From Escherichia coli (GTDB taxonomy: Bacteria; Pseudomonadota; Gammaproteobacteria; Enterobacterales; Enterobacteriaceae), in the NCBI RefSeq assembly GCF_009931435.1, contig NZ_CP043414.1: a stretch of 64,000 nucleotides of DNA; one strand, 5' to 3'. Every line of letters begins with the position of its first letter. The stretch's first letter is position 1. The notes under the pieces are model-generated. The model saw only the letters and a list, made by a program, of their open reading frames with translations. It was not told the DNA's origin and ran no database searches. Made by a program: the position numbers and the translations under genes. Below are positions 1 to 57,316 of the stretch, in pieces.

Positions 1-185
<185 letters not shown>

Positions 186-201
186 TTACAGGCGTTAGAT
201 T

Positions 202-225
202 TACATACATTTGTGAATGTATGTA
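202..225. promoter_or_regulatory. AcrR operator, 24-bp palindrome in the acrR/acrAB divergent promoter region
   Basis: tacatacatttgtgaatgtatgta is a perfect inverted repeat between the acrR and acrA starts; matches the known AcrR binding site. Confidence 0.8.
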
Positions 226-314
226 CCATAGCACGACGATAATATAAACGCAGCAATGGGTTTATTAACTTTTGACCATTGACCAATTTGAAATCGGACA
301 CTCGAGGTTTACAT

Positions 315-1508
315 ATGAACAAAAACAGAGGGTTTACGCCTCTGGCGGTCGTTCTGATGCTCTCAGGCAGCTTAGCCCTAACAGGATGTGACGACAAACA
401 GGCCCAACAAGGTGGCCAGCAGATGCCCGCCGTTGGCGTAGTTACAGTCAAAACTGAACCTCTGCAGATCACAACCGAGCTTCCGGGTCGCACCAGTGCC
501 TACCGGATCGCAGAAGTTCGTCCTCAAGTTAGCGGGATTATCCTGAAGCGTAATTTCAAAGAAGGTAGCGACATCGAAGCAGGTGTCTCTCTCTATCAGA
601 TTGATCCTGCGACCTATCAGGCGACATACGACAGTGCGAAAGGCGATTTAGCGAAAGCCCAGGCTGCAGCCAATATCGCGCAATTGACGGTGAATCGTTA
701 TCAGAAACTGCTGGGTACGCAGTACATCAGTAAGCAAGAGTACGATCAGGCTCTGGCTGATGCGCAACAGGCGAATGCCGCGGTAACTGCGGCGAAAGCT
801 GCCGTTGAAACTGCGCGTATCAATCTGGCTTACACCAAAGTCACCTCTCCAATTAGCGGCCGCATTGGTAAGTCAAACGTGACGGAAGGTGCCCTGGTGC
901 AAAACGGTCAGGCGACTGCGCTGGCAACCGTGCAGCAACTTGATCCGATCTACGTTGATGTGACTCAGTCCAGCAACGACTTCCTGCGCCTGAAACAGGA
1001 ACTGGCAAATGGCACGCTGAAACAAGAGAACGGCAAAGCCAAAGTGTCGCTGATCACCAGTGACGGCATTAAGTTCCCACAGGACGGTACGCTGGAGTTC
1101 TCTGACGTTACTGTCGATCAGACCACCGGGTCTATCACCCTACGCGCTATCTTCCCGAACCCGGATCACACTCTGCTGCCGGGTATGTTCGTGCGCGCAC
1201 GTCTGGAAGAAGGGCTTAATCCAAACGCCATTTTAGTCCCGCAACAAGGTGTAACCCGTACGCCGCGTGGCGATGCTACCGTACTGGTGGTAGGCGCGGA
1301 TGACAAAGTGGAAACCCGTCCGATCGTTGCAAGCCAGGCTATTGGCGATAAGTGGCTGGTGACAGAAGGTCTGAAAGCAGGCGATCGCGTAGTAATAAGT
1401 GGGCTGCAGAAAGTGCGTCCTGGTGTCCAGGTAAAAGCACAAGAAGTTACCGCTGATAATAACCAGCAAGCCGCAAGCGGTACTCAGCCTGAACAGTCCA
1501 AGTCTTAA
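315..1508 (+). CDS. acrA: Multidrug efflux RND periplasmic adaptor lipoprotein AcrA (397 aa)
   Basis: ORF 279..1508 trimmed to ATG 315 (MNKNRGFTPLAVVLMLSGSLALTGC lipoprotein signal); immediately upstream of acrB. Confidence 0.97.
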   Translation: MNKNRGFTPLAVVLMLSGSLALTGCDDKQAQQGGQQMPAVGVVTVKTEPLQITTELPGRTSAYRIAEVRPQVSGIILKRNFKEGSDIEAGVSLYQIDPATYQATYDSAKGDLAKAQAAANIAQLTVNRYQKLLGTQYISKQEYDQALADAQQANAAVTAAKAAVETARINLAYTKVTSPISGRIGKSNVTEGALVQNGQATALATVQQLDPIYVDVTQSSNDFLRLKQELANGTLKQENGKAKVSLITSDGIKFPQDGTLEFSDVTVDQTTGSITLRAIFPNPDHTLLPGMFVRARLEEGLNPNAILVPQQGVTRTPRGDATVLVVGADDKVETRPIVASQAIGDKWLVTEGLKAGDRVVISGLQKVRPGVQVKAQEVTADNNQQAASGTQPEQSKS

Positions 1509-1527: not shown

Positions 1528-4680
<3,153 letters not shown>

Positions 4681-9373: not shown

Positions 9374-9487
9374 GGGTGGGGGCCCTGCCAGCTACATCCC
9401 GGCACACACGTCATCTGCCTTGGCTGCTTCCTTCCGGACCTGACCTGGTAAACAGAGTAGCGTTGCGGGAGAACCAACAGAGCCCCC
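9374..9487 (-). ncRNA. ffs: 4.5S RNA (signal recognition particle RNA), 114 nt
   Basis: Minus strand reads GGGGGCTCTGTTGGTTCTCCCGCAACGCTACTCTGTTTACCAGGTCAGGTCCGGAAGGAAGCAGCCAAGGCAGATGACGTGTGTGCCGGGATGTAGCTGGCAGGGCCCCCACCC, the recalled E. coli 4.5S RNA sequence; expected between ybaA and atl. Confidence 0.92.
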
Positions 9488-27059: not shown

Positions 27060-27142
27060 AGAGCTCTCTCTTAGTTTAATTTCCGCCAGGTAATCAGATG
27101 ACACGACTGTGCTTCACGCCATCTATTAACATGTACGTCAGT

Positions 27143-27170
27143 ATATGGGGATGTTTCCCCCACATTCAAC
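27143..27170 (-). promoter_or_regulatory. sigma32 heat-shock promoter of lon
   Basis: Minus strand reads TTGAAT-gtgggggaaacat-CCCCATAT, matching the sigma32 -35/-10 consensus (cTTGAAa / CCCCATnT), about 85 nt upstream of the lon ATG. Confidence 0.7.
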
Positions 27171-27189
27171 GCCGAGAATAGAGGAAAAA

Positions 27190-27222
27190 TTAAAGGGGAG
27201 ATAAAATCCCCCCTTTTTGGTT
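27190..27222 (-). terminator. Rho-independent terminator after clpX
   Basis: Minus strand gggggga-ttttatc-tcccc followed by tttaattttt, just downstream of the clpX stop. Confidence 0.6.
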
Positions 27223-27246
27223 AACTAATTGTGTGGAAATGGTTAA

Positions 27247-39145: not shown

Positions 39146-39176
39146 ATAAAAAAGGTGCTACGGCACCTTTTTTATT
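39146..39176 (+). terminator. Rho-independent terminator of the cyo operon
   Basis: aaaaaaggtgc-tacg-gcacc-ttttttatt directly after the cyoE stop. Confidence 0.75.
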
Positions 39177-39212
39177 GTCTGAGAACAGAGATACGGCTAA
39201 TAACCGTATCTC

Positions 39213-39241
39213 TTGACAGAGTGAGTATATGCACATAAATT
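39213..39241 (+). promoter_or_regulatory. Putative sigma70 promoter of the antitoxin-toxin operon
   Basis: TTGACA-N17-TAAATT about 75 nt upstream of the antitoxin ATG, immediately preceded by a 9-bp inverted repeat (gagatacgg-N7-ccgtatctc, 39188..39212). Confidence 0.4.
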
Positions 39242-39317
39242 AATCATTCGGTTGATAGCCGTATTATGCATGAGATCGACTCCCTACGATTTCATTCAGT
39301 TAATCAAAGAGGTCATA

Positions 39318-39629
39318 ATGCCTGGAAAAACAGTCGCTCTACCCGATATCGATAAAACGCTGAAAAATGCGCGGGTTGAACTCAAAACCAGTCCCGACGC
39401 CAAAAACAAACTTCGTGAAGCTGCGCAAGCCGTTGGGGTAGATTTAAGCGCTTTTATTTTGAGCGCAGCTATGGAACGCGCCGAAAGTGTGCTTGATAAC
39501 CAACGTCGCCGTGAGCTTTCGAATCAAAGCTGGGAACTGATGAACCAACTCATCGCTGAACCTGCTCAACCGACGCTCGCCCTCAAGGCGTTAATGAAAA
39601 GGAAAAACAGCGATGGTCGACAAGCATGA
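39318..39629 (+). CDS. Putative type II antitoxin, DUF1778 family (TacA/AtaR-like ribbon-helix-helix), 103 aa
   Basis: ATG 39318 preceded by RBS aaagagg; product MPGKTVALPDIDKTLKNARVELKTSPDAKNKLREAAQAVGVDLSAFILSAAMERAESVLDNQRRRELSNQSWELMNQLIAEPAQP... has the size and pattern of DUF1778 antitoxins; 17-nt overlap with the downstream GNAT gene. Confidence 0.75.
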   Translation: MPGKTVALPDIDKTLKNARVELKTSPDAKNKLREAAQAVGVDLSAFILSAAMERAESVLDNQRRRELSNQSWELMNQLIAEPAQPTLALKALMKRKNSDGRQA

Positions 39630-40155
39630 AGAGATTACTCTGCCCATAGTCCTCTCCTGTAATTATCAGTCTGATATTACTTATCCTGGGCAAAAACAGT
39701 TTGATTGCGGTAACCCTGTTATCGATAAATTTGTACGCGCATCGCTAAAGAAAAGTGTGCGTAATAGCGACTGTGCTGCTAAAGCACTTATTGACAGACA
39801 AAGTGGTGAACTGATTGGCATCTGTACTTTTACGGCATATTCGCTGGAAAAACAACGCGTTTCTGGCGTCCTTCAGGGTTCACAACCTTCAGAGATTGGT
39901 GTTGTCAGATTAGTCATGTTAGGGGTAGCGCGGAAATATCAAAAGCGGGGCTTTGGTCAGGACCTACTATGTGATTTTTTTGAACATGTAAAAATAATTC
40001 ACCGGGCATTACCAATTAAAGGGGTTTATCTTGATGCTGACCCTGCCGCCATTAACTTTTATACTCGTCTCGGCTTTGTTCAGCTTTCAGCGAGGCCCAA
40101 TGTTTTCGGTGCTGTACCGATGTTTTTAGCGATTCAGCATATTCTCGCGGCTTAG
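39613..40155 (+). CDS. Putative GNAT-fold acetyltransferase toxin (TacT/AtaT/ItaT-like), 180 aa
   Basis: MVDKHEEITLP...FDCG...RLVMLGVARKYQKRGFGQDLL...INFYTRLGF carries the GNAT acetyl-CoA motif (R/Q-x-x-G-x-G/A); start overlaps the antitoxin stop, typical of translationally coupled TA pairs. Confidence 0.75.
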   Translation: MVDKHEEITLPIVLSCNYQSDITYPGQKQFDCGNPVIDKFVRASLKKSVRNSDCAAKALIDRQSGELIGICTFTAYSLEKQRVSGVLQGSQPSEIGVVRLVMLGVARKYQKRGFGQDLLCDFFEHVKIIHRALPIKGVYLDADPAAINFYTRLGFVQLSARPNVFGAVPMFLAIQHILAA

Positions 40156-40210
40156 ATTATTATCGCCTCCGGCCATGGCAAGTTTTGCCTCAGCCGGGGA
40201 CTGAGCAGCG

Positions 40211-41146
40211 TTACCACTTTTGTTCAATTGCCCCCGCTTTCATCAGGTCCACATCCTTGCCTTTAATGGTTGCCGTTGCGGCAACCATTGTGGTCCTTAT
40301 TGCTGCACAAGATTTTCGTTCAAATTCCGGTTTATAAAGAATAAGCAACGAATTACTGGTAAATGAATCAAGCCGGTAATCTGTAAAGTTAATATCCAGT
40401 CGGTTTAAGCCGAAAGGTGCAAAGCCGACCGTTTGAATAGTTTCCTTACCTGACGGACTCTTGATGTTGTACGTAACACGAAGATTGGCCACTTCGCCTA
40501 ATTTATTGGTTTTGGCAAAGAGGCTATCCATGCAGGAAAAACCTTTATCTAAAAAATTATCCCGCATTCCAGAACGGGTAATCGTGATCACAGGTAACGT
40601 ATCGTCAACCGTTTTTCTGTCAATCATATCTTTTCGACAGGTGGCCATAAAGTCTTCCGGACCAGTATAAATGTGAACACCCTTATCAAGATATTCTTTC
40701 GCTTTACTACAATCCACCTCGACATACTGACCATTGGCGTACATCATGCCCAACCTGGACCATGCTAAATTCACACCGCGTTGCGTAGCCTGATTAAATA
40801 ACGCATACGCTTTGGCATAATCCACCCGCACCTGTTCACCTTCGTAGTAGATATCCCCCAGCGCTAACGGAGCTTCTTCATCACCTTGTTTAGCGGCTAA
40901 CTCGAACCATTTAATGGCTTCCTGAACGTTGGGTTTGGTATCGTAGCGGGGCTGATAATATTCCCAGCCTAACAGGCTTTGCGCGTCGACATCCCCCGAC
41001 TCAGCCATTTTATACAGTGTCCTTATCACATCGGGGGCAGGCTTTTCACTGTATATGCTGTCATACAATTCATGCGCTTTCTCGCTTGCCAGTGAACCTT
41101 GTGAGGCAATTAATAAAATAGCCAATAAACTCTTTTCATTTAACAT
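40211..41146 (-). CDS. Secreted Sel1-like repeat (SLR/TPR-like) protein with an unassigned C-terminal domain, 311 aa
   Basis: N-terminal Sec signal peptide (MLNEKSLLAILLIASQGSLA|SE); Sel1 repeats (LGWEYYQ..., LGDIYYEGEQVRVDYAKAYALFNQATQRG, LGMMYANGQYVEVDCSKAKEYLDKG); C-terminal 160 aa unrecognised; convergent with the TA operon. Confidence 0.75.
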   Translation of the reverse strand: MLNEKSLLAILLIASQGSLASEKAHELYDSIYSEKPAPDVIRTLYKMAESGDVDAQSLLGWEYYQPRYDTKPNVQEAIKWFELAAKQGDEEAPLALGDIYYEGEQVRVDYAKAYALFNQATQRGVNLAWSRLGMMYANGQYVEVDCSKAKEYLDKGVHIYTGPEDFMATCRKDMIDRKTVDDTLPVITITRSGMRDNFLDKGFSCMDSLFAKTNKLGEVANLRVTYNIKSPSGKETIQTVGFAPFGLNRLDINFTDYRLDSFTSNSLLILYKPEFERKSCAAIRTTMVAATATIKGKDVDLMKAGAIEQKW

Positions 41147-41562
41147 AAATAACCTTTATGCATCCATCACTATATTTTTCAATAAACCTAACCACCAAAC
41201 ATCCACTTCATGAATAAATACACAGCCATAACAACCTCAGGTAATAAGTAAACATTTAAGCTGAAGCAGAATAACCAGCACCTCCAACACCTCTATTTAT
41301 TGCGATAAAATAACACCATCCTTTAATAAAAAATCACACGCTCATCAACAAATCCGAAAATAATATCATTCGTGGCAGGATAAAATCAGGCGAGCTTTTC
41401 ATTTGTTATATTTAACGCACAAAGTATTAATGGCAAGAATACGAGGGAAGCGCATGCCTGACGTAAAAATCACGCTCTTATGTAATATTTACTCATTAAC
41501 ACTCTGTTTACCCAACATGCGCTCCGCACTACACTATGTGGGCAATTTTTTAAGAGGTGGTA

Positions 41563-57099: not shown

Positions 57100-57106
57100 T
57101 GAATGA

Positions 57107-57134
57107 AATGCCGGATCTTGTATCCGGCATTTCA
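57107..57134 (+). terminator. Hairpin directly after tsx (probable terminator)
   Basis: aaatgccggat-cttgt-atccggcattt perfect hairpin just after the tsx stop; weak T-run. Confidence 0.55.
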
Positions 57135-57310
<176 letters not shown>

Positions 57311-57316
57311 TTTTTA

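Follow-up and report, generated by a model that had tools for sequence, protein, structure and literature searches.

The type I operators of TetR-family repressors, such as tetO and QacR IR1, are intergenic palindromes that lie where a TetR-family gene and an efflux operon diverge, and they combine promoter overlap with repression that is relieved by a ligand. The acrAB operator of E. coli appears to be organized likewise, but its half-site sequence is specific to AcrR and EnvR. The dimer of dimers that has been proposed on this 24-bp site is presumably closer to QacR than to TetR. The operator controls how strongly AcrAB-TolC, the principal multidrug efflux pump of E. coli, is expressed at the basal level, and mutations in the operator or in acrR increase efflux and thereby contribute to clinical resistance.

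In their passages on the acrAB promoter, PMC9769551 and PMC10597343 quote an exact 24-mer as the experimentally defined AcrR site and give Su, Rutherford and Yu (2007) as the origin of the K-12 site. One of the two describes there a geometry of two 10-bp inverted repeats with a 4-bp spacer; AcrR is suggested to act as a dimer of dimers, with one repeat per monomer of a dimer. Using EMSA and in vivo reporters, the same group showed that ethidium bromide and polyamines stop AcrR from binding the acrAB promoter, resulting in induction. The EMSA that established AcrR binding to this promoter used the K-12 sequence, which is identical to the one described here. In Yersinia, the AcrR motif is reported to span -52 to -29 relative to the acrR ATG and to overlap the -35 of acrAB.

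An AcrR operator between acrR and acrA

We analyzed a 64-kb stretch of E. coli DNA (hereafter, the window), which carries the first part of acrR on its minus strand, followed by the divergent genes acrA and acrB (Table 1). A preliminary description of this DNA had noted a near-perfect 24-bp inverted repeat at positions 202-225, between the divergent acrR and acrA starts, and had equated it with the known AcrR binding site. All of this held. The sequence at these positions is exactly TACATACATTTGTGAATGTATGTA, with 20 of its 24 positions palindromic and the centre as the non-palindromic part; it sits between the acrR ATG (173..171, minus strand) and the acrA ATG (315, plus strand); and it agrees with the published AcrR site at 24/24 positions (PMC9769551, PMC10597343). 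A repeat finder delimited two arms of 10 nt (202-211 and 216-225) that are 100% complementary and flank TGTG, in agreement with the published repeat-spacer-repeat geometry. The whole element spans -29 to -52 relative to the acrR ATG.

Judging from sequence, we hold it almost certain that AcrR, a TetR-family repressor, has its operator at 202-225, within the divergent acrR/acrAB control region of the E. coli chromosome, and our analyses of the window and of its homologues returned no evidence contradicting this reading. The operator was already known and is wild-type here, so that the value of the result is one of negative annotation rather than of discovery.

The 24-mer is present as a single copy in the window when up to 3 mismatches are allowed (0/100 shuffles). 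For a 4-nt loop, a random 64 kb should hold about 0.1 perfect inverted repeats with arms of 10 nt. With loops of 0-10 nt, the window holds about 9 perfect inverted repeats with 10-nt arms, versus about 0.7 expected per random 64 kb, and the others, where compared with the K-12 gene map, are intergenic or lie at gene ends.

Table 1. Features of the acrR-acrAB control region and flanking genes (positions in the window; conservation values are means over 68 distinct acrR-acrA intergenic sequences)
Feature	Position	Strand	Description	Basis
acrR, 5' part	1..173	-	codons 1-57, TetR-type DNA-binding domain	translation, Pfam, RefSeq annotation of the K-12 counterpart
marbox	155..173	-	predicted MarA/SoxS/Rob site ATGGCACGAAAAACCAAAC, overlapping acrR codons 1-7	pattern match
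Spacer towards acrR	174..199			conservation 63%
Putative acrAB promoter	200..229	+	sigma-70-like: TTTACA (200-205), 18-nt spacer, TACCAT (224-229)	consensus scan alone, 9/12 matches
AcrR operator	202..225	.	24 bp, TACATACATTTGTGAATGTATGTA	published site, repeat finder, K-12 identity
Left half-site	202..211	.	TACATACATT, overlapping the acrAB -35-like hexamer	conservation 99.6%
Centre	212..215	.	TGTG, 4 bp, varies among species and inside E. coli	conservation 71%, 11 variants
Right half-site	216..225	.	AATGTATGTA, overlapping the acrAB -10-like hexamer	conservation 94%
Candidate acrR promoter	239..268	-	TTAATA (268-263), then TATATT (246-241) or TATTAT (244-239)	consensus scan alone, weak
acrA	315..1508	+	periplasmic adaptor, first gene of the repressed operon	ORF and annotation
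acrB	1531..4680	+	RND transporter, second gene of the repressed operon	ORF and annotation

Variation of the control region among E. coli genomes

We then compared the region with K-12 MG1655 and with 5,426 complete E. coli genomes. The alignment with K-12 that the preliminary description had called for revealed no difference across the 141-bp acrR-acrA intergenic region (174-314), operator included. The 24 bp, their intergenic context, the flanking genes and all distances are those of the K-12 AcrR operator, and the site is without difference although the host strain is 2-4% divergent over the window. Positions 1-420 carry two differences from K-12, at 113 and 144, both synonymous changes within acrR (codons L21 and Q10, respectively). 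At L21, CTA in K-12 reads TTA here.

A 420-bp query found the region in 5,423 of the 5,426 genomes, with flanks always annotated as acrR and acrA. The 48-bp core around the operator (190-237) is identical in 5,283/5,426 genomes by megablast and has 1-2 mismatches in a further 116. This count of 5,399 genomes excludes variants of the dyad centre, which megablast misses with the 48-bp core because no 28-nt exact word remains. A separate query with TATG at the centre matched 20/5,426 genomes exactly, and 7/5,426 were matched by neither 48-mer. Carriers of TATG include close relatives of the window's lineage (MFDS1022581, E200086 and Z0117EC0005); the window itself has TGTG, as in K-12. These TATG/TGTG alternatives, together with the right-arm variants described below, might tune the affinity of AcrR or EnvR and so set a lineage-specific basal efflux, a proposal to which we give little chance.

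The lineage of the window is uncommon among complete genomes. Identity to K-12 ranges from 96.1 to 97.8% along its length, and identity of at least 99% over the first 5 kb is reached by only 8 of the 5,426 complete genomes, with a maximum of 99.4% in strain 2017-02-2CC. Positions 1-420 have no exact full-length match in any complete E. coli genome, identity peaking at 99.8%; in 2017-02-2CC, the one 99.8% genome that we aligned, position 113 is the sole difference.

Conservation across Enterobacterales

Orthologous loci were sampled independently of the operator, by searching for the first seven acrR codons with third positions left free (ATGGCNCGNAARACNAARCA) in one genome per species. The search returned 120 stretches, 75 of them coding for a protein with 45% or more identity to AcrR. 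All but one of these 75 loci have a divergent acrA homologue with its start about 141 nt distant, the exception being a locus truncated at 187 nt, and the other 74 loci yielded 68 distinct acrR-acrA intergenic sequences on which conservation was computed. In almost every locus, the best operator match lies 27-29 nt (about 28) from the acrR ATG.

The Salmonella and Yersinia acrAB palindromes have the same 24-bp architecture and the same placement relative to acrR and acrA. Across these and other Enterobacterales the arms are shared, whereas the centre differs by genus (e.g., TATG, CATG or CGCG). The left arm, which doubles as the -35-like element, is nearly constant across genera, while the right arm drifts in some: position 221 changes from A to T in 18/68 sequences, and position 216 from A to T or G in 20/68. 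Some Enterobacterales lineages carry T at 216 and at 221, unlike the window. The partner columns of both positions are invariant, and each change costs complementarity, leaving pair 206-221 unpaired in 18/68 sequences and pair 211-216 unpaired in 17/68, with G-T wobble in 3 more. Compensatory changes between the arms were absent from all 68 distinct sequences. Conserved arms, a drifting centre and spacer and the lack of compensation together form the footprint expected when a protein reads a pair of half-sites, not that of an RNA hairpin, and we interpret the conservation pattern accordingly.

Predicted promoter elements and the marbox

A consensus scan predicted a sigma-70-like acrAB promoter whose hexamers overlap the operator, with the left arm on the -35-like element and the right arm on the -10-like element (Table 1). 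Within these hexamers, T201, T202, A203, C204, A205, T224, A225, A228 and T229 are 99-100% conserved across genera. The same approach yielded a weak candidate promoter for acrR on the opposite strand, the -35-like part of which is poorly conserved across genera. Further towards acrA, two blocks of its leader (247-263 and 276-311) are fairly well conserved across Enterobacterales; they include a GGA (296-298) and the Shine-Dalgarno sequence GAGG (304-307).

The control region also appears to extend into the acrR coding sequence. As the degenerate marbox consensus we take AYnGCACnnWnnRYYAAAY, with the site lying upstream of the activated promoter's -35. The pattern AYNGCACNNWNNRYYAAAY matches exactly at a single place in the window, minus-strand positions 155-173, versus 0.03 expected. 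The marbox has been published as lying in the first 20 nt of acrR. A set of 73 distinct sequences from Enterobacterales shows 99-100% invariance at the third positions of acrR codons 2, 3, 4 and 6 (GCA, CGA, AAA and AAA) and exclusively ACC or ACT at codon 5, the third positions of codons 2-6 having been free in the search pattern. As a control, codons 9, 12, 20, 28 and 38, which encode invariant residues, are near-random at the third position (0.29-0.49). We read acrR codons 1-7 as dual coding, with a constraint at the DNA level beyond that of the protein and a clean marbox footprint.

Alternative explanations for the palindrome

A palindrome may also be conserved for reasons other than repressor binding. 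It might act as a hairpin of the acrR 5' leader RNA, or as a DNA cruciform, to control stability, termination or translation; either strand can indeed fold into a stem of 10 bp closed by a 4-nt loop (about -9.1 kcal/mol; z = -3.0 to -3.3 versus shuffles). Such a folding energy is, however, expected by construction for any palindromic operator, and the 68 distinct sequences hold 0 compensatory substitutions, with 216 and 221 changing opposite invariant partners, which makes this reading extremely improbable. The stem has G-C pairs at only 2/10 positions, it lacks a T-run, and the site is not among the terminator-like sites of our scan; with a stem so poor in G+C and no covariation, we discarded an intrinsic terminator or regulatory RNA hairpin as a candidate. 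An Rfam scan of the whole window gave no match in the acrR-acrA control region. The near-invariance might instead be due to the acrAB -35 and -10 hexamers alone, the symmetry being incidental, since the outer end of each arm is shared with one of these hexamers, TTTACA or TACCAT. The spacer of a sigma-70 promoter is under little sequence constraint, yet near-invariance runs here through the promoter spacer at 206-211 and 217-223, and variation is confined to 4-5 nt at the dyad centre. A near-invariant spacer with a variable dyad centre is what two half-sites predict, and we rejected conservation by the promoter alone, which retains next to no plausibility.

EnvR (AcrS), a TetR-family paralogue encoded beside acrEF, has been reported to bind the acrAB promoter of E. 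coli more tightly than AcrR does; in Salmonella, mutation of the 24-bp palindrome was published to abolish EnvR binding, and a review states that AcrR and EnvR share one binding site. The palindrome could on these grounds be mainly an EnvR operator. We regard this as very unlikely, because these reports make EnvR an additional user of the operator and not a replacement for AcrR, whose binding is itself published by EMSA; moreover, envR expression is reported to be negligible in laboratory conditions, and the constant spacing of about 28 nt to acrR in 74 loci ties the operator to the neighboring regulator. Assignment of the site to AcrR thus remains our preferred reading.

Proposed regulation of acrAB and acrR

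In the mechanism that we propose, the helix-turn-helix domain of AcrR would read each 10-bp arm as a half-site. Since the arms overlap the -35-like and -10-like hexamers, bound AcrR is predicted from this geometry to occlude the acrAB promoter and to block access of RNA polymerase, in agreement with general accounts of TetR-family repressors and with the -35 overlap published for Yersinia. Since the operator also precedes the acrR start codon by 29-52 nt, autoregulation is likely as well, and acrR transcription would most probably be limited too, in keeping with the AcrR literature. Binding of a ligand such as ethidium bromide or a polyamine to AcrR would release it from the DNA and allow acrAB to be expressed, while MarA, SoxS or Rob at the marbox (155-173) could provide the positive input.

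Flanking genes

The minus-strand acrR ORF begins at 173 and leaves the window after 57 of its 215 residues, the remaining ~158 (58-215) lying outside. The 57 residues match Pfam TetR_N (E = 2e-18) and equal those of K-12 AcrR, including L34 and R45. No insertion interrupts codons 1-57, positions 1-173 being colinear with K-12, which bears out the earlier remark that no insertion sequence is visible in this part of acrR. The nearest complete genome, from a different strain, encodes the K-12 AcrR protein (WP_000101737.1). By sequence, we see wild-type versions of the operator, the marbox, the promoter-like elements and the AcrR DNA-binding domain, and no sign of derepressed efflux is visible within the window, which covers acrR codons 1-57.

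Differences from K-12 are more numerous in the repressed operon, with 31 nucleotides in acrA and 45 in acrB. At the protein level, these genes carry A390T in AcrA and A494T and H596N in AcrB.

Other features of the window

Relative to K-12, the window carries a 2.3-kb insert at 39174-41483, between cyoE and yajR. Its ORFs encode a DUF1778/TacA-type antitoxin (~39318-39629, plus strand), a GNAT acetyltransferase resembling a toxin (39613-40155, plus strand) and a tetratricopeptide-repeat protein (40211-41146, minus strand), and they are annotated likewise in RefSeq genomes. A 2.9-kb query spanning the insert matched about 1,366 of the 5,426 complete E. coli genomes over at least 80% of its length.

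Two RNA genes scored above the Rfam gathering score, both at the positions expected for E. coli: the sRNA sraA between clpX and lon (27131-27226, plus strand; 106.7 bits) and the small SRP RNA ffs (9383-9479, minus strand; 65.8 bits). Between tsx and yajD, the window has about 38 bases more than K-12 (57272-57311), which break the BLAST alignment, and a perfect inverted repeat lies nearby at 57105-57133; the extra bases may represent variation in a repetitive extragenic element.
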